Part shown: positions 1-58,390 of the stretch, piece by piece
How positions within the stretch are numbered: position 1 is the stretch's first letter
How the letters are laid out: each line of letters begins with the position of its first letter
Origin: Raillietiella orientalis
Taxonomy: Eukaryota
Direction of reading: 5' to 3'
DNA length: 64,000 bases
Assembly: GCA_036172245.1 (NCBI GenBank)
Contig: JAYWIR010000024.1
Span: 124,001 to 188,000, forward strand
Notes under the pieces: model-generated
What the model saw: the letters and a program-made list of their open reading frames with translations, nothing else
What the model was told of the DNA's origin: nothing
Databases searched by the model: none
Position numbers and translations under genes: made by a program

Positions 1-963
1 ATCCCCACATGGAGGATCGACCCCGAGAACTGGGAGTGCATCGCGAGTTTCGAGTCCCATTCGCAGGATGGCGCTGGTTGGCCCACGGACTTCGGGTGCG
101 GCGGCATTGGTTGACACCCGGTCACACCGGAGCATTTATTTAGAAAATAAGCATCCACGTCTGTGATACTGCCACGTGACTTATGGATACGAAAAAGAAC
201 CTTCAGGGATCTGGCACGCAGACCAGCAGGGTTCGCCTCGGCAGCACAGGGGAGGGGGAGACAAACAAAAAGAAAAAAAATGAAGTCCATAACTGGGGCA
301 GGGGGGGGGGAGGTTCGGCAAGGGATCACTGTGTGCTGGAGGGCGCCCTCTGCATCCTTCTAATAATGCCTGCAAGTTCCTGTTTTATGGTTCCCAGAAG
401 GGGCCATCTTGACGCTGTCCTCATGAAGAGGACAGCAGAATAGATGGCGTCCCTGTCGGGAGTATGATGGGTCCCGCCGCGTAGGCAGCAAAGTGCTGCT
501 AGGGATGAGGCCGGCAGAGGGAGTCACACAGGAAGAGGTGCTTTACAACGTCTCTGGCGTTGCCACCGGGGGTTCCAAGGATTGCGGCAAAGCGTCCCCG
601 AAGGGGTCGGAGGTCAGCACAGTCCCCTAGGAGGTTCTGGAATGATTCCCGCTCCCCGCACCTTGCACAGTTTGGGTCCACACCCCTCAGTGTCCACAGA
701 TGCCGGCGGGCGTTACACGGGAGGCCCCAGTGCAGCAGCATCAATGCCGACTCCTGCCACTCTAAGGGGAAGGTGCGGAGGCACTGGTGCAAACCGGATG
801 CCTCCGTTGACCGGTCTGGATTGTAAGTTGACCCTCCGGGTTCCTTCCAAGAATCAAGGAGCCAGTTCCCGTCAGGGTTTTCCTCCCAAGCGTAAGAGGT
901 AAGGACTCCTTCCTCCGGAGTTTCCTGGATTCATAGGGCTTTGGGGTTGCCCCCTCCTAACTT
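1..963 (+). mobile_element. SINE-like host repeat, copy 1 (1-94 and 789-963; head lies outside the window), interrupted by element A copy 1
   Basis: 1-94 aligns with the reverse complement of ~49195-49285, and 789-963 with the reverse complement of ~48023-48495 (lacking ~290 bp present in copy 2). Both copies end at the same point (CCTAACTT). Confidence 0.55.
112..771 (-). mobile_element. Element A copy 1: short L1/Tx1-like LINE 3' fragment (ORF2 C-terminal zinc finger + 3'UTR)
   Basis: Minus-strand translation LEWQESALMLLHWGLPCNARRHLW...CARCGERESFQNLLGDC (zf-RVT-like), T-rich 3'UTR, terminal AATAAA+hairpin at 115-140. Flanking direct repeats GGTGCGGCGGCATTGGT (95-111) and GGTGCGGAGGCACTGGT (772-788). 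Confidence 0.85.
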
Positions 964-1882: not shown

Positions 1883-3206
1883 TGCCACCCGGGTACGCCG
1901 GGACGTTTATCAAAACTTTCTTTTACGTGGTATAAGGCCCCACTAACGGCCAACACAACACCGGTCCTGCCGGGACGCCGGGACGCAGCCCGGCGTGACT
2001 CTCCTCGGCAGTGGAAGGGGATGGGAGAGAAAACAAAAAGAAAAATAAAAACATAAGGAAAACAAAAAGAGTTTGGAAGGGTGGGAAGGAATCACAGACC
2101 ACCGAGAGGAGGGTCCATCCTTTGCAGGATGCCCTCGAGGTCTTTCTGCATACTACCCAGCTAGGGCCATCAGGAAGCACACAGCATACGGGATGACGTC
2201 CCTCACGTTGTGGTGTTCGTCCTTGGCCTCACTCCAAGTCGCCACGATGCCAAGGATGCAGCAAAGTGCTGTCGGGACTGCGGCTGGCTGCAGGACGTCC
2301 CGCACGAAGAGAAGCCGGAAAACGTCTCTGGGGAGGCTGCCAACCGGTATCCCCAGGGTAGTCCCAAAACGTTCCCAGAGGGGTCGGAGGGCAGCACAGT
2401 CAGCTATCAGGTGGGGGAGGGATTCCCGCTCCCCGCACCTGGCACATTCAGGCTTTACTTTCCCCCGCGTCCAGTGGAAGCGACGCGCGTTGCAGGGTAG
2501 TCCCCAATGCAACAGGAGAAGCGCTGTCTCTTGCCACTTCAGGGGGAGAAACCTGGATCCATTCAAGATTGGGGACCACTTCAGTTCATCCGTCGGGATT
2601 CCGAGCAGCTTGCCCCATCTTGTTAGTCCTCGCGGCTGGACACTCGTAGCCGTGGCGTCCACCAGCTGTCCCATGGTCCAGCCGCTGATCAACGTCTGTC
2701 GTCCTGTGATGCGGCAGGAGACTTGCCACTTCGGCGTCCGGGTGCTGTGAAGCGCCCTCCTCAGAAAGGGCAGCGCCTTAGCCTGGCAGGTCGTCTCTGC
2801 CCACGTGCTCTTAGTGGGACACTCTAGTATGTGCCGCAGGGTGCGGCCGCGTATTTACATCTCGTGGCTTCTCTGGTTGATTACCGCCCACGTGCCAATG
2901 GTCTCCTACAACCAGGCGGAGGAATTGGCGGGGCTGCAAACCATCCAGCCGTTTTCCTTAGCCAGGGTGGCCATGCGTCCAAGGAGAAGGCCGCATCTTC
3001 GGATCTTCCAGCCAAAGCACAAGATAAGACGCGAGTCCTTGCGTCCTAGAGACACGGTTGGCGAGGAGGCGGGCCGGAACGCACCAAGGGGTGCTCCACA
3101 ACTTCGCTGCGATGGCCATGGTGCGCCATCGCAGCTGTATTTCCATCCGCTCCAGCGTCAAGAGGCTGAGACCGCTGTCCCGACGCGGAGCTCATAACAT
3201 CTTCAG
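1883..3206 (-). mobile_element. Element B: 5'-truncated L1/Tx1-like LINE (post-RT region, zinc finger, 3'UTR)
   Basis: Exact 14-bp TSD CGGAATTCGGAGGT at 1869-1882 and 3207-3220. ORF 2153-2692 contains WGLPCNARRFHW...CARCGERESLPHLIADC. RDSGLSLLTL near 3160-3185 resembles the post-RT GGLG motif. Ends with GATAAA+hairpin (1886-1911). Confidence 0.9.
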
Positions 3207-6094
3207 CGGAATTCGGAGGTGAAAGAGTAGCACGTTCAATCTTAAACAGTGAAATCGTGCTTTCAGCCCAAATACTTAACTTGGGAATGATAGGGCACTC
3301 CGCTGCTCTTCGCATCCGAAATGGACGGATGGAGTTTTGACTACACAACACTGTGTTCAGTGTTGCTCTGCTGCGAGATTATCACCAGCGTGTGAACTTG
3401 CCTTGTGGCATTCTTTGCTCGTGGCACGACGCGAGGATTCTCAAAGTGTCCTGTGTGAATGCCGGTGGGTAACAGTGGCAAACTTCCCACATTAAACTCA
3501 TGAAGATAAACGAATTTCACTGACCCTTGTAACGAGCCGCATATTCTCCCGACATGGAACTTCTTCGCGAAGTCGTGTAGCACCATAATCATGAAGGTGC
3601 AAAAGTGCAGCAGGTACCGAGGGTGCTGACGGCGTTCTTGTATTCCCGATTCGTGAATTCAACATGCCCTGCACACACGCTTGTCAACAACCACCGCACC
3701 TTTAAAGCTGTCGTACCTTTTCGAGCACGATTTGGGACCGTCCTGTCACTCGATTCTTAGTACTTTGCCTTTTCCTGCTGTTTCCCACGTTCATGTCGAC
3801 CGATCCGCAGGCAGTGACCCGAGTCATCCCTAATCCGTTGAGTTGCACGCGTAGAGCATCTGCTCTTACTCGGGAAATTCGCATCCGAGGTCTTCGAAGA
3901 ATAATCTGCCAACTCTCAATACGAACGGCGGGATGTCTGCCTTACTGAGAATTTGTCTTCTCTTTTTGGCTTTTTGCCGAGACCCGGTTTGAAACGGAGG
4001 CGTGCTGCCCCAAGTGTCGCTTATCACCTCAGGCCGGGCATGGCTTCCTGAAAAGCAATCTCGTCACGCTCGGGGGACGTTCAGAGAGGTCAGCAGATGT
4101 CCGGTTTATCAGTCTGGACACTGTCTGCTCACACGATCCGGTCTTTCGGCACTCGGCAAGTAGTAGTCCTGGAGCCTGGAGCAGAGTCTGCTTGGGTCCA
4201 TCAGCGAAAGCCCTCGAGTGCTCGATCGAAATCCTCATCATCGCCTCGTCCAGAGCTCCAGACCGGCGAAGCCAACCTACCGTCGATGCCTACTTGATAC
4301 AGGAAGATATACTCGGATGCGCCTCGTTTCCGGCCAGAACAGCAGGAATGTTCTGTCGGTCATTTTGGAGCTAGCAAATGCAACAATCCAAGTCAATCTG
4401 TCTCTTTGAGCTCTGGAGATTCACTCTCACCATAATTATGACACAGAAACGGTCTTTGGCGGTCGTTCCTCCTCCTCTATTCTTCGCTGTGCTCAAGTTG
4501 CTTGGCGGGCAGTCTACAAAAGGGTTCGTTTCTGTAACCCCGAGGAAGACGTGCCTGCCATGTAACAGGTCCCGGCATTCTTCTTACGGCTTTGAGTTTT
4601 ACGAGTTCTGGTACCACCATCCGTACAGAGTGGAAGAGAGTCAATCTTCCGTGAGGATTCGTCTGGTCAAGACCACGGTTCCTCAACAGCCTTCTTGGAT
4701 AGTCAAAGAATCAGCAAATCGGGAACGGAAATCAATGTTGCTTTGCCAACTTCCTCTCAAGAGCTTCGTCGCTGCACTCCTCCTCCCTTTCCCTCCAGAG
4801 TTCACGAAAGAGGTGTGACGTTGGAAAGCGGACCTCACCGTCGTGACTCAAGCTTCGACAGCTGGAGGAATGTTTATCGCCCTTCTTAATATTTGATTGG
4901 AACTCTAAGGATTTGCGCCAATTTTTTTTTTATTTATTTATGGATGAACTGCGAACATATTGCGGAAGCCCTGCCGATATCAGACCGCATTTGCTTGTCA
5001 TCCAATGTGGGCGTTCAACAAATGGCTCTTGAAATCTCGCTAATGAGGCACATTCTTTTGCTTATCTCGAGAAAGACTCCACCCTCCTCTCGTCCGTACG
5101 CATCCTTCGTTTCGAACGTGTCATTTTCCCATCTTCTGAGAAATGCACGTTCGAAATGCAAATACGGAAATCTGAGTGAACCGAAAAACGTAAAGAGGGG
5201 CGTCATGCGTTTTCCGAACAGCGATGAACAAATATACGATGGAAGAAGGAAAAAATCACCTACTGAACTTTAATACTACCAGTCTTGAGAAATCGGTATT
5301 GTAGATCCCTTCGCTTATTATGAGTAGAGGTTCTGAAACCTCATGCTATTAAGTGACGTCGTTGCAATACCTATCTGGGAAGAGTCTGAGAATCTCCATA
5401 TGTGGACCATTCTAAAAATAACCGAATTAACTTTCCATCTTTTGAAAGTGTATCACGTCTGCTCATCTAAGGGCACATCAGTATTGCCAGTATCACTCGG
5501 TACGCTGCACAATTACAGCCTTGCGCACGGGCAGTATCATAGGCGAGGAAGGCGACTGAGCCGTGATTATTGCTAGTTGAAAACATTACAGCAAGCATCT
5601 CAAATTGCGCGTTTACATATCACGGCTGGTGTTAACCAGCTAGAAAGAAAATTTCAAACGAAATTACCAGTTATTATGATTATATCATTAGCATAGAAAT
5701 GCAACTGGCAATTTCCTTTGAAATTATATCCATCATTATTCTATACATCAGCATTATTATGATTTCACATTTACATTTGTCTATGTCATTGTGATTGCTA
5801 TCTTCACCATCGTTTATTATTTTGGCGTTTTCGTTTCCGTTATCATTATTGCAAAATGGCCAGATTTTTTTCGAAATGCAAGGACTTCAGATTTCCACAT
5901 GAAACGCAGCTATCTCGTTTCAGGAGGAAGGCGTGGAGTCGATGACAAGCTGTCAAGGTTACCGGAGGTCGAAATCTTCAGAGCGGATAGCGGGAACACG
6001 CAGAGTCCACAGTGGCTATTACGATTCCAGAACCATTTTGAAAGAACTTTCCGCTAACATGTTTTTCGTCGTGACGCGTGTGCCTTACCTGTAG

Positions 6095-6265
6095 ACGGAT
6101 CTGCTTCATCGTGAGATACCTTGCCACTCCGGTCTATGTACCGGCCGTGGCAAGTTCTGAGCGCGTGGGGCAAACCAAGTGTTTCACCACACTAGAACAT
6201 TTGTGTGCACTTTTATTGTTATTATTTTTGATAATAAATGTCCCGGCAAATCCGGGTGAAAAAAG
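6095..6265 (+). mobile_element. Short LINE 3'-end-only insertion (structured 3'UTR + AATAAA hairpin)
   Basis: Nested stem 6120-6154, GTGG/CCAC hairpin 6165-6190, AATAAATGTCCCGGCAAATCCGGGTG at 6233-6258 then A6. Possible TSD CCTGTAG (6088-6094 / 6266-6272). Confidence 0.6.
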
Positions 6266-6411: not shown

Positions 6412-6906
6412 AAGGTGCACAACAAAATGGGGTGAATAACTGAATGATCGTCGAAACAGAAGCGAACGCAGAGACAGTATCTCCATCACTCGGAGATTCA
6501 TGAGGTATCATCGATGACGGTCTTAGACATTGGTTCCATCTTCAGATGATTTGAGACTACTATCACGGGAATGTGAAATTTGATCCAGCACGCCTCCATT
6601 TGGACGAAATTGGATATTCCCCTCTCCCCTCACCCCGAGGGACCTTGTTATGGGGCATCACGAGAAATCACTCAAATAATTCGTTTTCTGACCGACTTTC
6701 CCGCACACCACGATCATCTGCAGCTCGCTCAGCGTTTTTTCCTTCCGTGCTGGTTTCCTGATTATCTGGATTTCACGCGGATCGCTCTTGAGTAGCCTTT
6801 TGAAGACCATCCAATCCTGGATTTCGCTGCCTGAGATGGTGAGGAATCAAAGAGTAGATGCCTCCTTTTTGCTCGCAGCTTCCAGCCCAGGCAGTCAAAG
6901 ATTGCT

Positions 6907-7084
6907 GTTTTTTTTTTTTTGTCCCCCCTTACCCCTGCTGCCGTGGTGGACCGTACAGGTCTGCGAACCGGTGACCCGGCAGGCTCCAGGTTGTTTCTTC
7001 GGGCGTGGCTGGATCGCTGGTCCAGCCACAGCGCGTTTTTAAAGTTTGTTTTTTAAATAAACGCCTCGGCGACCCGGGTGAAAA
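6907..7084 (+). mobile_element. 178-bp LINE 3'UTR-only insertion related to elements A/B
   Basis: Exact 12-bp TSD TCAAAGATTGCT (6895-6906 / 7085-7096). T tract, CTGCCG...CGGCAG stem, terminal AATAAACGCCTCGGCGACCCGGGTG + A4. Confidence 0.85.
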
Positions 7085-10000
7085 TCAAAGATTGCTCGGT
7101 GCCCGCTTGCATCTTTAGGTCTTGACCTTCACTTCCTACGCTGACAAAGTCAGAGCGAAAAATTCCTTTTCTAAGCCTCCGACTTTTCCGTCGAGGGACA
7201 GTCGATGAAGATGTAGTATGCACAAAAGTCTCATTCGCGACCCTCTATCCTTTCTTCCGGTAGGCTGTGCCAACTGGAACCAGTATCTGGAACAAACGAC
7301 GCCTGGACAGGCAAAGTTCACTTCCACTGTGCATCAGTGAGTTTTTGTGGCTGGTCAAGACGGACGCCTCGATCCTTGGCTCTAATTTCGAGACAGCACG
7401 AGGAAGCGTCGAAGGAACAAGACGGGCAGACGCACAGGAACCGCTCCTCTCGGGAGGCTGAGATATCTCGTCCATTGTTACTGGATGTTGATCTCGATGT
7501 CCGTCCACCTTTCATCTTCCCTCCTTGGCTTTGCTTGCTTGCGCGTCCAGCTCTCGGTCGAGTTGGAAGCACACCCGCGTTTTGACGTGCTCTTCGCTCG
7601 TTGCTATGGGAAACGAGCGTCCCGTTCACGAATTTATGGACGTTGCGGCTTTGTCGGTCGGCCCGTGAAACGCATGGCTCGCCTGCTTTCCCCCCGTGCT
7701 CTTCCTTTTTCCTCTTTCGGTGATTCCGGGCTAAAGCACTTGAATTGCCGTTTCCTGGCAGTTCAAGTGCTGCAGTTTCACTTGACGCGGACTGACGCGA
7801 GGAACCTCTCGGAGACGCCCTGCAGAGAATGAAAAATCAGTCTTCAAAAAACTCTGATACTTCGCGCAGCAATGGAGACGTCTCACGTTGCCAAGCTCGC
7901 ACATCCCCCTCCCCCCCTCCCTTCCCTACCGCACAACAATGGAAATCTCCTGACAGTTTCGATAGGAGCGGTCGGATCCATTGTTGCACACCCATTGTTG
8001 TCGCTACTCAGGAAGCTGAGCAACCGGAATCCGCGCCGCAAGGGAAAGGCCTTCGGAAAAAACGCCTGGGCCACAGGAGATTTGACCGCAAACCGCGATG
8101 CGGCCAGGCGGGCGAATTCGCGTCCCCACTGCGTCCTAGCCCCCCGAGTACTTTCGATCGAATGGGCAAACATGGGATAGCAGGGTTGGGCTGCTTTCCG
8201 CTTTCCTCTTGCAGCGGCGGCGGCCTATGCCGGCCTTTGCTCTTTTCGTCCGGACCGAGCGAAACGTCAGGAGGTCACTGGTTCGTGAAATGCGGGGGAT
8301 CGATGCACCTCGAGAAAGAACCAGACATTTGCGTTTTCCTGATGACATTAGATTTGTCTGGAGCTTATCGCACCATCTGCATTTACCACACGCATCACGT
8401 TGATAATCATTTATAAAAACGAGGGACACGCCCAAAAAATGCATGTTAGTTCAGTGAGCTCTAAGGAAAGTGAGCTTTCTTTCCGGAGGAGGGTTCGTTT
8501 TCCAGGTAAACCCTGCGTTTGACCGAGCCCACTTGTTCTCACACTGTATTCACTCTCGATACCTCGCTCTCGTAAAGATCAGCCTGTGGCTTCCGTTATG
8601 CCTTTCTAAAGTGTGTCAGTGAATCACGTTAAGGCATGGAAGCCCAAACCTTGTTGCCGTTCTCTCGTTAGATTACCGCTTCGGGAGGCAGTGGTGACCC
8701 TCGGAGCACCGGGTCTCGCGTCTTGCACTGCTCCACACTTGCTGAAAACCGCTCTTGGGGGAAAACGAGCAGAGATTCTTTCTTTTTTTTCCAATTGAAC
8801 GGGATCGCAGCGTGCAGAAGTGGCCGTCTGCCTCCTCCTATGTGTTGTCCATGCACTGGGCATAAGAATGCCGGACGAAGAGTGCGTAGAAGGACCCAGA
8901 ATGCCTGTAGCAGGAGAACCTATAGCAGGAAAAGCGAAGGTTCGGATTCCGTCAGCGTGGTCTTCTGCAAGACAAGAGGAGGAGGAGGAAGGGAAAGCGA
9001 CTGCTCTTGCGGGCACGCGCCTTTCGCCTTAGTTCTTTCGCTGCTTTCTTAGCTGTATCCAAGAGGAATCCGGAGACCCACGACGGTGCCTTTCCTTGCC
9101 CGCCTTGCTTCCTCACGGCTGCTGACGTTCGGCAGTGCCAGGATCTGTACGAAGCCTCCTTTCGTTCATTCTGTGGATTCTGAGCCACCTTCTTCCTTAT
9201 CCTCTCTAAGGAGGGGGAGGGGGGCGGCAAGTCTGTCGCAAGCATGTTCAGAAACCTGGCTCGTTCCATTCGTCCACCCGCGTTGGCGACCTGGAGTTAC
9301 CTCACGGGACAGCTAGCGTAGGGGGGGCGCGAATACCCGTGAAGCGGGCCGACACCGAGAGATGAACCGAGAGTTTACGGTCCACCCCGCTAGATGAGGC
9401 TGAGGCTGCGGGTGTGCACTGTTTAGACGGATGCCCCGTTGACTGTAGCAGTCAGGGACTGGGAGTGGGCCCTTCGGCGAACCCACCTCACGAGTGGTCC
9501 TTGGGTGCGTGATGTAGTGAGGCCTTATGAGACCCCATGTAGGGTTGTTGCAGGGCCACTATGGGGTGGACGACCGCTCTTGCTTACTTAGCGTACCTCT
9601 CCCCCCCCTCTCAAGGTCACCTCAGCGGCGTGCTTCTTTCGCCTCCCTTCTTCCTTCCCAAGCTGAAGACACGCGTCCTTGTCTCCCCCCCCCCCCCCCC
9701 AACGCACCTAGAGAACTTGAAGCTGCGAGATGCACGCGGCGGCGCCCGGAGGGAAAAAAACTTTTCGCCCTCCTCCCCGCAGCCACCTTCGGGAAATTTC
9801 TCGTCCTTCGAGCGGAATCGAAGTCTCTGGCTGCCTCCGAGAACCCCTCAGGCACTCGTAGTGGTTTTTCCATTGAGCCCTCTTCCCCCAGGCGGCATAA
9901 AACTTGCTGGAGGCGCGCGCTGCACCCGCTTCGCTGGCGCCTGAGCGGGGTGCCTGCTGCTCGAGACTCCTGGCACCCCGAAATAAAAGGGATGAAGTCC

Positions 10001-45084: not shown

Positions 45085-46440
<1,356 letters not shown>

Positions 46441-48022: not shown

Positions 48023-49337
48023 AAGTTAGGGGGTGATCCCGGGAGGGGACCACCCTATGAATCCAGGAAGGACTCTGGAGGAAGGAGTTCGTTCTTCTCA
48101 CGCTTGGGAGGGGAACCCCCTTCCTTATTCTCTCCGGAGACACCCCTCCGGTTTGTGGCAGCCGCTCCATTCTTTCGTTTCTCCTCCGAAGGGAACCCGG
48201 AAAAGATACTCTCTTGGAATTTCTTCTCCGGAGGAAACCCGCACGGGAACCGCTCCTTGTTTCCTCCTCTGAAGAGAACCCCAAAGGGACGCTTCTGAAT
48301 TTGCTCTGAAGGGTCGCTCCCCCCGCTTCACATTCTGGAGAGACATCTATCCACCAACTCCATGGTACGAGATGGGAGGATCACCCCACTTGCACAACCA
48401 GAAGGAAACCCCGAAAGGTTCCTTGATTCCTGGAAGGACCCCAGAGGGTCAACTTCCAATCCTGGACACTCATAGTAGGCATCCGGTTTTCGGCTTCCAC
48501 CAATGCCGCACCCTCCCCTTAAAGTGGCTGGAGTCGGCGTTGATGCTGTTGCAGTGGGACCTCCCATTCAGCACCCGCTGGCATCTGTGGACACAGGGTG
48601 TGGGGATCCAAACTGTGCGAGGTGCGGGGAGCGAGAATCTCTGCCGCACCTCCTAGTGGACTGTGTTGCCCTCCTCCCCCTTTGGGGATGCTTTGCCGCG
48701 ACCCTTGGAACCCCCGGCGTCAACACCAGAGACGTTCTGAAGAGCCTCTTCCTGCGCGGCGCCCTCACTCCGGCCTCATCCCTAGCAGCACTTTGCTGCC
48801 TACGCGGCGGGACCCATCATACTCCCGACAGGGACGCCATCTATTCTGCTGTCCTCTTCATGAGGACAGCGTCAAGATGGCCTCATCTGGGAACCATAAA
48901 ACAGGAACTTGCCAGCATTATTACAAGGGTGCGGAGGGCGCCCTCCAGCACACAGTGATCCCTTGCCGAACCCCCCTCTGCCCCAGTTTTGGACTTCATT
49001 TATTTTCTTTTTGTTTGTCTCCCCTTCCCCTGTGCTGCCGAGGCGAACCCTGCTGGTCTGCGTGCCAGATCCCTGAAGGTTCCTTCTCGTAGTTGTAAGT
49101 AATGTGGCAGTATCAAATGCCCTGCCGCAGACGTGGATGTTTATTTTCTAAATAAATGCTCCGGCGTGACCGGGTGTCCACCAGTGCCGCACCCGAAGTC
49201 CGTGGGCCAACCAGGGTCATCTTGCAGTGGGAACTCGAAGCAGCGATGCACCCATCCGTCTCGTCGACCTTTCCCCTGGTGGGATTCGAGCTCGCAAGGC
49301 TCGGTGCCACGTGCGGGAGACCGGCAGCCACACGGCC
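48023..49337 (-). mobile_element. SINE-like host repeat, copy 2 (tRNA-like head at 49337), interrupted by element A copy 2
   Basis: Minus strand begins GGCCGTG-TGGCTGCCGGT (A-box-like at tRNA position 8), with GAGCTCGAATCCCAC (degenerate B box/T arm) at ~49279-49293. Homologous to window positions 1-94 and 789-963. Confidence 0.5.
48514..49176 (+). mobile_element. Element A copy 2: short L1/Tx1-like LINE 3' fragment
   Basis: CARCGERESLPHLLVDC zinc finger, frameshifted upstream. 18-bp TSD TCCACCA(A/G)TGCCGCACCC at 48496-48513 and 49177-49194. Terminal AATAAA hairpin 49151-49176. Inverted homologue of 112-771. Confidence 0.88.
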
Positions 49338-53264: not shown

Positions 53265-55040
53265 CCGGTAAAAGTGCACGTGTTAAATGCGCTCATGGAG
53301 GCATGCGGGAACACGGGATTTCGCCATAGAGGGCCCCATTTTTTGAGGGGGAAGGCATAGGGCAAGATGCTTTCCAGCTTACTTCATGGCTTCCAATCGA
53401 CCAACTCGTGAATTAAGGGAAAGAGAAATCTCCCCCGACAGCAGTGGCTGGACTCTTGCGGCAAGAATCCCTAAGACTCATCCCTAATCTCCGCGTGAGC
53501 AATAAACACGATCAAGGACATGCATGACGAGCTGGTAGCACTGCTCAAGAGGGCCATCTTGAAACACAGAGTGGTTCTGGGGGGTCCGCCTCCAGAAGAG
53601 TTCCGGCGCTGGAGGTTCATGCAGCCACGAAGCGTCACGACGGGCTGGTGAATAAGATCAGGAGGATGGCGGCAGGCCGATGGGAGCAGCGCGTCCCCAG
53701 TCAGCTCATCCCAGAGTCCGTAAGCCAGAAAGGCATCGGTGTGACCCAAGGTACCCTGCGAGGAATGTAGCCACGTGTTCACCTGCCCGACGCTGAGCCG
53801 GGACTGGGCCAAGCTGAAGGAGGTGACAGGCCTGCAGAGGATGGACAAGACGGAGATCCTGGCAGGGATGTTTGAAGGGAACGGCAACGTTCCCCGATAC
53901 AACCCAACGGTCCGCATCACCATCGCCCTCTTTATCACGAGCATCGTGATGAGAAGGACAAAAATGCGGACCGGAATAAACAGTATGCCAGCTGTGGAAA
54001 TCCTCAGAGGATCAGTGAAAAGGGAAATTGGGATCAGAAGCTGTGGACGCATCCCCACTTTGACGTACTGTCACATCCTGCGAAGGATTCAGGAACATTG
54101 TCAAGTGAGTGAATTCCCCACGCAAACTCAGTGACTGGATGCCCCAAGACCAACTCCGAAAGTGAAAAAGAGTGACAACCAGTGACACTGACCAACGCAT
54201 GTATGCATGAATGAAAGTAGGAAATAAATTCACCCCACTGCAAGTCGGACTGGGAAAAGAGAAATGCAGCCACATGGGCCATATGCCGGCGACGACCTGC
54301 ACAACACCCAAGAGCTGCCATTGGTGACCTGAGAGACGACTGCCGGCGCTTCATCGCGTGGATGGAATTCCAGGACCACGCCCTTCCGTACCGGCCCCAG
54401 CTCGGACCAACGTCACCCCGGTCAGAGAAGTCTGGTAGATCATGCAACACCGCCGGTGGCGCAGCGCGGAGCGACTGAGCTCATTCCTAGCCATCCGCCT
54501 ACGTCCCCCTCGGAAGAGAACAACGCTACGCCCGCATCCACTGCAGGAGGAGGAGATCGATGGGCTGGAGCGCTCCAACGCCAGCCTGAGGGACGAGGCC
54601 CAGAAAGAATAAGCCCTGCAGCAGACTCCTCCAATGAGGAAAACGTCCGCGCATATTTCTCAGACGACGACTGGACCTGAGCCGGTCAGACCAGGGCCAG
54701 GGGCGGCACGCACGAGGGGAGGTGGGAGAACCGCAGGGCGTTCAAGATACCCCTGCGAAAAGAGGAGAGGAAGGTCCCAGAAACACAAACATCCCCACAG
54801 GCACCAGGTGGTACAGTTCCTGTCGTTGCTGCAGACAGGAACGACGCTGTGCTTGTCCCTTGGAGCGAAGAACGAACGAAAGCGGAGCTCGGTGGTGTTT
54901 CTATGGCGACGCTGCATTGTTAGTTTGTTCGATCGATTTGCTGTCTAAAGTGCGTTCATCCCACCGCGAGTCGTTTGTCCTACTGACCCCTGCACATTCG
55001 TTTTTTTGTAAAATAAACACCCCGGTGCACCTGGGTGCAA
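53265..55040 (+). mobile_element. Host H1: degraded Tx1-like ORF1 (zinc knuckle) followed directly by 3'UTR; candidate HAL1-like ORF1-only element, interrupted by C1
   Basis: Rejoined across the C1 TSD: VKVHVLNALME...FPAYFMASNR...KCSHMGHMPATTC...KSCHW (broken CCHC knuckles), low-complexity tail to TGA at 54680, then AATAAA hairpin at 55012-55037. No RT is visible. Confidence 0.45.
53430..54255 (+). mobile_element. Element C1: 5'-truncated L1/Tx1-like LINE 3' end
   Basis: 10-bp TSD AAAGAGAAAT (53420-53429 / 54256-54265). ORF ...HVFTCP...EILAGMFEGNGNVPRYNPTVRITIALFITSIV is homologous to C2. Ends AATAAATTCACCCCAC...GGACTGGGA. Confidence 0.8.
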
Positions 55041-55099: not shown

Positions 55100-55273
55100 T
55101 AAAAAAAAAAAAATAATTGTTTATTTTTTCCCGCTCCCCTCCGTGGTGTTGTGAACCTCCTGGTCGACCTCTCCCTTTTTGGATTGCCGGACTTGCTGGG
55201 ACGTGAAGTCCTACTGACTCCTGTATGTTTATTTTTTTTGCAAAATAAACGTCTAGGCGCATCCAGGTGAAAA
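55100..55273 (+). mobile_element. Short 3'-end fragment related to the H1 3' end
   Basis: Shares GTCCTACTGACYCCTGYA, a T tract and AATAAAC with 54977-55018. Terminal motif at 55244-55269, then AAAA. Confidence 0.6.
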
Positions 55274-55689: not shown

Positions 55690-58390
55690 TGTGTTTGAGT
55701 GCATGAAACGAAAATTAATCCACCTCACTGCAATGAGGACAAGGGGAAAGTCATCACACTCAATGTGACCTGCACCTTCGAAAAGCCAGCCAAGGTCTTT
55801 GGAAGACGCCAGGAAGTGCAAGCAGAGCGATCACTGTGCCCTGGACATCCACCTCTGTGCCTGTCCGAAGACGAGGTCCCACATAGGCGAGCCGGCCCCA
55901 CTCTGGGGAGAAATTGCTCTCCGGCAATGTCCATCGCCATCGCCCGATGTCTTCTGAAGGTAACGGATAGTTCACCGCCAGCAGCGCCCCAGCCGTGCCA
56001 TACGATAAGATGACACCGAAGAAAATGTCCGAGAAAACCCGTTCAAGACGGCGGAGACCTCAGGCAGTGAGTGAAACCATCCGGATGCTGCTGCGCATTC
56101 CCTGCTTGCTTAGCAAAAACACAACCGAGGACGAACTCCTAGAAAAGCAAGCATCAGAGTTTCCCCAAGTCCCACTAGGGGTGGGGTGAATTTATTTTCT
56201 TTTACATTCATACTACAATTTCATTCATACAAGTTACACAGGAAAACTTCACTACACTTCACGAGTATTCTCTTGAAGTCTATTTCTTTGGGTCTCTGAA
56301 AGTTCACTGCACTTTTTCACCTGGGCATCGTTTGAGCCCAGATGCTGCCTTCAATCCTTTTCAGGATGTGACGGTATTTCCAGGCCTGCACTCTTCCACA
56401 GTTCCTGACTCCTTCTGGAAAAGCCCTTTAAGGATGTCCATCGAATATACGGCAGTCCTGGTGGTCTTCATCTTTCACCACCGCACAAGAATGGCGGTGA
56501 TGAAGAGGGCGATGGTCACTCTTACCATTGGGTTATAGCATGGAACAGTTCCATTTCCTTGGAACATCCCTGCCAAGACCTCCATGGTCGAGGCATTTGC
56601 AGCCCGATGACCCTTTTCAGGGTATATCACTCGGTTTGCAATGTGGGGCAGATCAAAACATGCCGTCTTGTATCGATGCCACCACATGTCTGCAGATTTC
56701 TTCTTCCCTTTTGCCCGTGAAAAACTTCATTCTGGATCCACTCAGGATGCCAACATGGTAAAACATAAGGAGGTTATCTTGAGCGTCCGGTGGTAGGTCA
56801 CTCCTCCAGGGCGCCGTTCCAATCGCTAGTGGATTAAATCCACTGCTGGCGTGGCGGTCGGCGGCTTCTTGGAGGGCACTGGTGTCTTTTTCTTCGACTA
56901 TTAGTCGGCGAACATTGATCTTGGTTACCCTGGACCACGCGAAGTCGGTATGGTTTTTCCACACTAAGTGGGTCCTATGGGTGAAACTGCCAGAGATGCT
57001 TTGGATGTAACGGAGCACCCTGGAATGGTGTAGGTATCATTGCCGTCTCCATGTCTCAGTGGCTTTCAAAGTAACTCTGGACCGCTGGCGTATCCAGCTC
57101 CTCGTGTCATCCTGCACGGGGAGCATCTACGGGATAACCAGGATGGATTCCTCCTGCCAGAGTTCTTTGCTTTTAGGGATGATCTTGATTTGTTCTTTCC
57201 TTATTAGTTGCTGTTTTCTCCGCCATGCTGGGTCAGTGGTGGACCATTCGCCCAATCTGCCGAGCAGCGCAGTCATCAGGCCTCTCGAGTTGTTCACCAA
57301 CAGCGAGTACGCCCTGTGCGCTGCGTACGGTCAGTCGTCCCAGTTGGAAGACATGTCCAGGATTTGTCGCACCTCCATGATGTCCACGGCGTGTGCAGGA
57401 GACTTCATCCCGGTCCCATCTTCTTCCTTAGGGCGACATAGTGGTTTGAGGCGTACTCTCGGTCGGTATCCTCCCCAAAGGGTCTTTCTCTGAAGCTTTT
57501 CCACCTCTCTCTTGGTATCTTTCAACATTCTGTAGAAGGCTGCTCCAAAGAGTATCTTTGGAAGGAGTACTCCATTCCAAAGATTAGCCCTCTTCTTCAT
57601 GTTAAAGTCCGAACTGGTATACTTCGCTCCTTCTGCTGCTGCTTTCCCCAGGATTTCTTTCCACAGTAATTGGGATGCTGGTGCTTCGCCAATGTGGACA
57701 CCCAGGTACTAAATTCGATCCACCGTACGGAATCCTTCCCTCGTGAGTGTAGAGAGGTCCAGGATTCCGACGGGCAGAAGCTGGCTTTTTGGGGCATTGA
57801 TTCTTAAGCCCATTCCTTGTTCCATTAGCTCCACCACATGCAGAAACCCTCGCTGATCTCTCCTCTTTTAGGAAGAAGAGAAGACCATCTGCGTAGGCTA
57901 GATGGGTGAAGAGCAAGCATCAGAGAGGGACCGTAAATGCGGAGCGCGCCAAGAAGAGGAACAGGGCCAGGCTTCTTGGCTGAGCCTGATCAGGCCACGT
58001 CAGCAAGTATTGACCGAGGGAACGGAGGAAGTGAGCAGACAGGATCCAACGACTGCAGGCGAGGCCAGGGGCAGAGCAAGAACGTCCTGACGGGCTGCCA
58101 GCCCAGCCCACGAACTCTTGATGTCCCCTCGAGCTGCGAGGAAGTGCTGGAAGCGAGCCGTCGAACCAGCAGAGGCTGGAGATGTGCTGACGACCAGCCT
58201 GTCCAATAGGGCGCTGCTACGCGGGGAAAAAAAATATCCTGGGGCATATACGCTGGGAGCGTCGGATAGGTGACCTCCTGTGGTGAAGGGGACCCTCCAG
58301 CACCACACAATCTTTTCTTTGTTTTCACCTCTTTTTTTCTCCTTTTTTTCAACACCTCCGTAACGAAGAAAGCGTGAAGGATAGGAAGAT
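55690..58390 (+). mobile_element. Host H2: degraded retroelement (ORF1-like knuckle, T-rich 3' tract), interrupted by C2
   Basis: RKCKQSDHCALD knuckle-like remnant near 55810. Reading frame is continuous across the C2 TSD (ELLEKQASE|RDRKCGARQEEE). CCCTCCAGCAC + T tract at ~58293-58350 resembles the end of element A. Confidence 0.4.
56160..57911 (-). mobile_element. Element C2: 5'-truncated L1/Tx1-like LINE from the RT active-site motif to the 3' end, degenerate
   Basis: Exact 14-bp TSD AGCAAGCATCAGAG (56146-56159 / 57912-57925). HLAYADG (YADD remnant), KRANLWNGVLLPKILF...LWGG...LCRPKEEDGTG, EVLAGMFQGNGTVPCYNP. Several frameshifts; same 3' end as C1. Confidence 0.9.

Follow-up and report, generated by a model that had tools for sequence, protein, structure and literature searches.

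Stem-loops near the 3' end are known from several groups of retrotransposons. The L2-clade elements UnaL2, ZfL2-1, and ZfL2-2, which are of the stringent type, carry a stem-loop near the 3' end with a variable stem and a near-fixed loop, and in ZfL2 the region of ORF2 between EN and RT binds the tail stem-loop (PMC4176376, PMC1636434). The tail described here has the same kind of stem and loop; unlike these elements, it belongs to the L1 superfamily, combines three hairpins with AAUAAA, and lacks a terminal tandem repeat.

The L1 clade is mostly taken to recognize poly(A), and the stringent exceptions found in print are plant and algal elements (PMC3472496). Monocot 1a elements (LINE1-1_ZM with ZmSINE2/3) and Chlamydomonas L1-1_CR resemble the present tail in being L1-clade members whose conserved 3' hairpin shows compensatory changes and keeps its loop, and differ in having one hairpin, a UCU loop, and mostly a poly(A) end, a comparison made through quoted motifs (PMC3472496, PMC3747384). 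The 3' UTR of avian and turtle R2 elements is also a multipart fold of divergent sequence (pseudoknot, hinge, and stem); it is bound by the RT protein, and its 3' stem lies a few bases from the priming site (PMC11601368). R2 is an element with a restriction-like endonuclease, and its pseudoknot was shown by cryo-EM and compensatory mutants (PMC11601368), whereas the pseudoknot proposed for the present tail shows no covariation. Tx1L, Keno, and Tx1-Mar are similar to the present lineage in being AP-endonuclease LINEs with subfamily-specific targets in repeats, transposons, and snRNA genes (PMC4494074). A literature search found no description of how the 3' tails of Tx1 elements are structured.

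Tails of an L1-superfamily LINE lineage

The window is the whole stretch of Raillietiella orientalis DNA that was analyzed, 64,000 nucleotides in length. The initial annotation described a multistem RNA structure in LINE 3' UTRs at four sites. The sequences that it quoted are present where it placed them, and the assignment to LINE 3' UTRs holds, with all four sites in one lineage and on the sense strand of the LINE. A common terminal motif, ATAAA-YG-YCYCGG-N(4-6)-CCGGGTG, follows each of these sites, as well as a fifth at 115-226, at a distance of 75-110 bases. The copies and their parts, with hairpins designated H1 to H3 and the outer stem P1, are as follows.

1884..3206, minus strand: subfamily B copy, a 5'-truncated LINE with the end of ORF2 and the 3' UTR (tblastn, ORF2 3215-2189)
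1978..1993, minus strand: inner hairpin H1 of B, 5-bp stem, loop CUGCGU at 1988-1983 (folding and covariation)
1967..2011, minus strand: outer stem P1 of B around H1, CUGCCG at 2011-2006 with CGGCAG at 1972-1967 (folds; conserved, compensatory change about nil)
1927..1943, minus strand: second hairpin H2 of B, short form GUGG...CCAC (folding; weak in subfamily B)
1886..1911, minus strand: hexamer of B like a poly(A) signal (GATAAA here) and terminal hairpin H3, CCCGG/CCGGG, which is the element end
6129..6144, plus strand: H1 of a subfamily D copy, loop CUAUGU (CUACGU in the majority of the family)
6120..6128, plus strand: inverted repeat of 6147-6154, private to the D copy and not family sequence (1 of 16 anchored D copies; alignment)
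6165..6190, plus strand: H2 of D, long form GUGG...CCAC
6233..6264, plus strand: AAUAAA, terminal hairpin H3, and six A of D
6907..7084, plus strand: subfamily C copy, 178 bases, 3' UTR alone (40 genomic matches)
6938-6943 with 6977-6982, 6956-6971, 7005-7029, and 7056-7080, plus strand: P1, H1, H2, and AAUAAA with H3 of C
48514..49176, plus strand: subfamily A copy including the end of ORF2 (tblastn)
49035-49040, 49053-49068, 49104-49129, and 49151-49176, plus strand: P1 5' arm, H1, H2, and AAUAAA with H3 of A
115..774, minus strand: second subfamily A copy, absent from the initial annotation, with H1 at 211-226 and H3 at 115-139

Target-site duplications bound the B copy (15 bp, 1869-1883 and 3207-3221), the C copy (12 bp, 6895-6906 and 7085-7096), and the A copy at 48514 (18 bp, 48496-48513 and 49177-49194). 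Local folding z-scores at the four noted sites are modest (-1.1, -2.9, -2.4, and -1.8). An A-G mismatch in the inner stem at 6938 and the weak outer stem at 49035 represent decay of single copies.

Elsewhere in the window, terminal motifs without a recognizable H1 occur at 55013-55037 and 55245-55269, the second of which looks by eye like the subfamily without the H1 3' arm, and an ORF2 fragment of the LINE lineage, 32% identical, lies on the minus strand at 57406-57831. A Ras-like GTPase gene with very short introns was recognized by eye at 45650-46440. A match to U4 snRNA at 5517-5663 exceeds the Rfam gathering score, is good over the first ~75 positions, and is diverged thereafter; it is probably a truncated pseudogene.

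Exact copies of the terminal motif number 2,015 in the 210-Mb assembly, compared with 0 for a reversed control. The four window copies have 45, 45, 40, and 40 genome matches. All 45 for the B copy stop at a common end point; matches for B, C, and D stop a few bases past the terminal motif, and most for A continue into a common flank. According to Pfam, ORF1 of near-full-length copies (L173, L175, and L176) has a CCHC motif, and their ORF2 contains AP endonuclease, RT, and zf-RVT domains; the zf-CCHC and zf-RVT scores fall below curated cut-offs. Among solved structures, the RT is nearest to human L1 ORF2p (phmmer E 8.6e-28 to 5.8e-27, as against a best R2 value of 2.7e-13). Candidate target-site duplications of 10-22 bp were found for 46 copies whose 5' ends lie 47-5631 bases from the tail, a sample that favors long copies and in which some candidates may be chance matches or tandem units; three window copies are among those with checked duplications. 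Based on the terminal motif, the upstream ORF2 end, the ORF domains, the affinity of the RT, the duplications, and the variable 5' ends, each of the four sites is the 3' tail of a 5'-truncated LINE from an abundant lineage of the L1 superfamily. The lineage is Tx1-like in that its subfamilies favor particular targets.

The best named protein matches come from tick, fish, frog, and thrips at ~30% identity, and one protein that is 72% identical to the lineage exists without DNA context. Outside this genome, the tail motif had 0 matches in metagenome contigs, and a protein scan returned only relatives of 25-38%. Within the genome, the best identity of the ORF2 C terminus to a subfamily C query is 58-61% for A, 57% for B, 44-45% for D, 42% for E, and 35-41% for F, with a minimum of 31%. 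Retention of the tail across C termini of 31-61% identity to this query implies that it is old. A check for partner SINEs found ORF2 upstream in most clusters with enough flank, and no multicopy noncoding head.

Hairpins of the tail

The sample covers 286 loci, with 259 distinct tails that fall into 82 clusters, and the choice of queries inflates the largest of these (46, 32, 31, 18, and 16 tails). On the sense strand, the order of parts is a U-rich and C-rich tract, an optional P1, H1, a variable H2, an A/U-rich spacer, AAUAAA, and H3, followed by a few A residues at most and then the target-site duplication. An anchor for H1 was located in 201 of the 259 tails; the 58 without it were left out and 3 mis-anchored tails were dropped, leaving 198. 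Alignment A1 holds 36 hand-chosen class-I representatives, and alignment A2 holds the 26 best hairpins, centered by script. A parsimony tree was built from the tail minus H1 (~130 columns), in which internal branches represent active lineages and terminal branches mostly represent decay after insertion.

The inner stem with a six-nucleotide loop, as initially annotated, covaries between subfamilies, and is a 5-bp helix with a C-U-R-Y-G-N loop. Depending on the subfamily, its closing pair is U-A, C-G, or G-C, the next pair is G-C or A-U, and the two outer pairs are C-G or U-A. The H1 helix is the sole prediction of RNAalifold for the 36 representatives, with double changes in 5 of 6 pairs; 91% of its cells are paired, and its double-change cells correspond to 9 of 500 whole-structure shuffles, which is weak alone. 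On internal branches of the tree of 198 tails, 21 changes in the five pairs preserved pairing and 6 disrupted it, and 8 of 8 double changes were compensatory, compared with 49 preserving and 78 disrupting changes on terminal branches (p=2e-4). Controls with a slid register had no significant excess of kept pairing. Cluster majorities are paired in 208 of 235 cells, as opposed to 192.4 after shuffling (0 of 5000 shuffles), and of 88 terminal motifs sampled in genome order, 61 are preceded by H1, compared with 54 of 2000 random windows.

Changes in H1 that create G-U outnumber those that create A-C by 11:1 on internal branches, and the two are near balance on terminal branches (37:34). In the tail outside H1, the corresponding ratio on internal branches is 189:144, so a general strand bias explains part only of the excess, and the remainder indicates selection on the sense RNA strand. 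H1 is a real RNA structure under selection as sense-strand RNA. Alternately, the stems might be by-products at the DNA level, in which CCGG-rich quasi-palindromes are homogenized by template switching and CpG decay mimics wobble, with no function as RNA. The D copy at 6120 does carry a private inverted repeat of this type, many single-sided changes are C-to-T in CpG, and C-to-T exceeds G-to-A over the whole tail. However, this origin is very improbable given that G-U-making changes are enriched on internal branches only and beyond the tail background, that the position and loop are kept across lineages 31-61% identical in protein, and that H2 stays in position although its stems differ completely.

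The H1 loop probably adopts a pseudo-triloop fold, by analogy with described hexaloops, in which C1 and G5 pair and N6 is free. Position 6 changed on five internal branches and positions 1, 2, and 5 on none, although the constancy of C1 and U2 is partly built in, as the H1 anchor weights both. Position 2 is U in 192 of the 198 tails and A in 2. Because C1 and G5 are both nearly invariant, the pair shows no covariation. The pseudo-triloops of HBV epsilon (CUGUGC), the iron-responsive element (IRE, CAGUGN), and HIV TAR are likewise hexaloops in which positions 1 and 5 are C and G and the sixth base is free, and epsilon is a binding site for a reverse transcriptase (PMC1636360). This is a resemblance of motif to unrelated elements.

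Thermodynamic folding of whole tails does not single out H1, which is seldom in the predicted dominant fold: its median pairing probability is 0.02, with values >0.5 in 25% of the 198 copies (37% for the antisense strand). Forcing H1 costs 0-13 kcal/mol in the 17 copies shown, as the CCGG arms of H1, P1, and H3 are able to exchange partners. In cluster 19 (6 of 259 tails) the 3' arm of H1 is missing, yet the subfamily multiplied, and within B a sub-lineage, comprising 9 of the 45 anchored copies from the haplotypes listed, has a U-C mismatch at the closing pair.

The outer stem is conserved as the initial annotation proposed, but its covariation was not borne out, as none of its 6 pairs has a double change on an internal branch in 126 tails. 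The pairs of CUGCCG/CGGCAG are 80-94% paired in these class-I tails, and the inner end shows a single A-U/U-A exchange, between B and C. In subfamily D the register is shifted and includes wobbles, in E the stem is mostly broken, and F-type tails are without it. P1 is an accessory stem in most, not all, subfamilies. The outer stem CTTGCCAC/GTGGCAAG assigned to the 6120 site is not a variant of the family, because only one of the 16 anchored D copies, the one in the window, has its 5' arm; at this position the other anchored D copies have GGACCTCG-like sequence. The inverted repeat is private to this copy and probably derived from a template-switch event.

The downstream GTGG...CCRC hairpin is kept with altered stems, as had been noted. 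In most large subfamilies, an H2 of 8-13 bp is situated between H1 and AAUAAA, and it holds its position with stems that are wholly different. It beats 20 shuffles in 50-81% of copies of A, C, D, E, and F, and in 2% of copies of B, which has the short form. Double changes occur in 10 of 10 pairs of the 26 chosen hairpins, a test that is partly circular because the hairpins were picked and centered as best.

The most constant part of the tail was overlooked in the initial annotation, and consists of AAUAAA and the terminal CCCGG/CCGGG hairpin, where the near-invariance of H3 and its position after AAUAAA in all subfamilies are imposed by the search motif. The element ends ~20-25 bases 3' of AAUAAA, and each subfamily has its own 5-8 bases after H3, which overlap the target-site duplication. 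In 259 of 259 tails, the run of A past the element end is <=7, and there is no poly(A). Conservation of AAUAAA suggests that the RNA may carry a poly(A) tail that is skipped. In young sister families, which lack H1, AAUAAA and a CCCCA/UGGGG hairpin are followed by a terminal 3-4 A.

Pseudoknot, ribozyme, and switch models

The suggestion that the internal bulge pairs just downstream to form a pseudoknot gained no support from covariation. In A and D the bulge could form four pairs (G-R-R-Y with G-Y-Y-C), and the majority sequences of B and C each have an A-C mismatch. Over clusters, 96 of 140 cells are paired, compared with a shuffled mean of 100.2, and the full set of four pairs is present in 9 of 35 clusters. 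On internal branches, single-sided changes kept pairing 15 times versus 6, and double changes were none. The initial view of a structured cis element in LINE 3' UTRs is supported, with compensatory changes in H1 and H2, conservation with almost no such change in P1, and no covariation in the pseudoknot.

P1, H1, and the bulge pairing could in principle form a compact self-cleaving pseudoknot, either HDV-like or an unknown ribozyme. The HDV ribozyme has P1.1, P4, and J4/2, with a catalytic C, between P1 and the 3' strand of P2. The nested layout of the tail outlines that of HDV, and the single-sided changes above favor pairing. Against this model, the pairing strand follows P1 directly and leaves no space for P4 or J4/2, P1 is missing in F-type tails and broken in E, and the pairing itself lacks internal double changes, is no better than shuffled among clusters, and is mismatched in the majorities of B and C. 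Moreover, a cut at P1 would sever the tail from the ORFs, and 0 of 46 candidate 5' ends lie at the start of P1, in a sample that favors long copies. Retrotransposon ribozymes have been described at 5' ends (PMC6765202, PMC8501958). A search of the tails with Rfam covariance models gave no ribozyme matches at E up to 10, which agrees with the initial annotation that hammerhead, twister, and HDV do not match. Rfam matches numbered 20 in the whole window, none on LINE tails, and 5 weak ones in 20 tail loci, none a ribozyme. Self-cleavage is very improbable.

A switch between H1 and H3, by loop-loop kissing or by strand exchange that gates access to the 3' end, is very unlikely. The UGCG of H1 complements the H3 loop (CGCA, CGUA, or CGUG) in F, B, and A, and whole-tail folds of B and F pair H1 with H3. 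However, all four kissing pairs are present in 16 of 47 clusters and fail in C, D, and E, a G-to-A change in the D loop is uncompensated, and changed arms of H1 compensate each other while H3 is unchanged.

Three other candidates were rejected. ENE triple-helix elements have a U-rich internal loop between two helices, and the loop that separates P1 from H1 is instead rich in purines and C. The IRE carries a bulged C five pairs below the loop; in the tails position -6 is mostly G or A, loop position 2 is the U described above (192 of 198) in contrast to CAGUGN, and there is no Rfam match. The pyrimidine tract was rejected by eye as a splice acceptor, because there is no AG there in subfamily C.

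Recognition of the tail and choice of target

The tail is probably a recognition signal of the stringent type for the reverse transcriptase of the element itself, by analogy with the systems above. The insertions carry TPRT footprints. The ORF2 protein would bind the tail by reading the H1 loop as a sequence-specific handle and H2 and H3 by shape, and the bound tail would set the 3' end of the RNA at the nicked target. The few subfamily-specific bases just below H3 might then prime reverse transcription through short pairing with the target, so that tail recognition would replace the poly(A) recognition of mammalian L1.

The hairpins might instead act mainly in forming the 3' end of the LINE RNA or in stabilizing that RNA, by presenting AAUAAA, fixing the cleavage site, or shielding a tail-less end, or might bind ORF1p or a host protein, and not be read by the RT. 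AAUAAA directly precedes H3 in all subfamilies, where the search imposes it, and in young sister families, the end lies ~20-25 bases past AAUAAA, and H3 is more widespread than H1. We consider these roles unlikely, since H1 sits 70-150 bases 5' of AAUAAA with a loop nearly fixed as in a protein-read handle, and with poly(A) lacking from 259 of 259 insertions, the template would have to be selected in some other way. A more elaborate version of recognition by the RT is a poly(A)-independent module of three hairpins in an animal-type L1/Tx1 lineage, in which the RT reads an epsilon-like pseudo-triloop, a wobble-rich pseudoknot or H1-H3 exchange gates the 3' end, and the terminal bases of each subfamily pair with its own target. 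This version is doubtful as a whole; if it is true, dozens of subfamilies that diverged in target choice would have a handle in common.

Target samples for subfamilies A and C come from DNA searches and are possibly enriched. In subfamily A, 23 of 32 copies have one common flank (window 48496-49337 and 36-114; L031-L060). The copies at this flank have target-site duplications and differ in length (638, 666, 708, 877, 908, 1153, 2037, and 179 bases), which points to repeated insertion at one repeat site and not to one duplicated insertion. A tRNA-like target was rejected, as ARAGORN found no tRNA in 12 loci. In subfamily C, 16 of 31 copies are antisense in codons for the D-L-x-K-A-F-D RT motif of sister LINEs (L062-L085, L171-L175).

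Several related families were also observed. L151-L153 (G000:C71:68500-98499) contain young Tx1-like elements that have long open ORFs and follow one another head to tail at ~5.2-5.7 kb spacing, and the 3' part of U4 snRNA is found between units, its likeness to the U4 match in the window being judged by eye; the literature search gave no report of U4-targeting elements. Young snRNA-associated Tx1-like families, collected by RT search, have no H1. A related young family is twice followed by what we take, by eye, to be U1-snRNA-like sequence (L165, G000:C189:1-10000). Copies of another young family invariably stop ahead of an identical 12-base sequence, which is the start either of a further copy of the family or of some other conserved sequence (L155, L159-L164, L166, L169-L176). 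In L167 and L168 (G000:C81 and C30), a further non-LTR element forms arrays, and its long ORFs do not resemble those of the L1 type.

The motif matches no Rfam family, and an incomplete literature search returned no description of it, so it seems undescribed, as first proposed, whereas the kind of element is known, namely a 3' stem-loop read by a LINE ORF2 protein. Because that principle is already established, the gain is an example and not a mechanism. A deeply conserved, tail-less, multihairpin 3' end in Tx1-like elements would be informative on when stringent recognition was lost, and its dozens of natural variants are ready-made compensatory mutants. Target-specific LINEs with a compact template handle (~130 bases) are also of interest for site-specific gene insertion.
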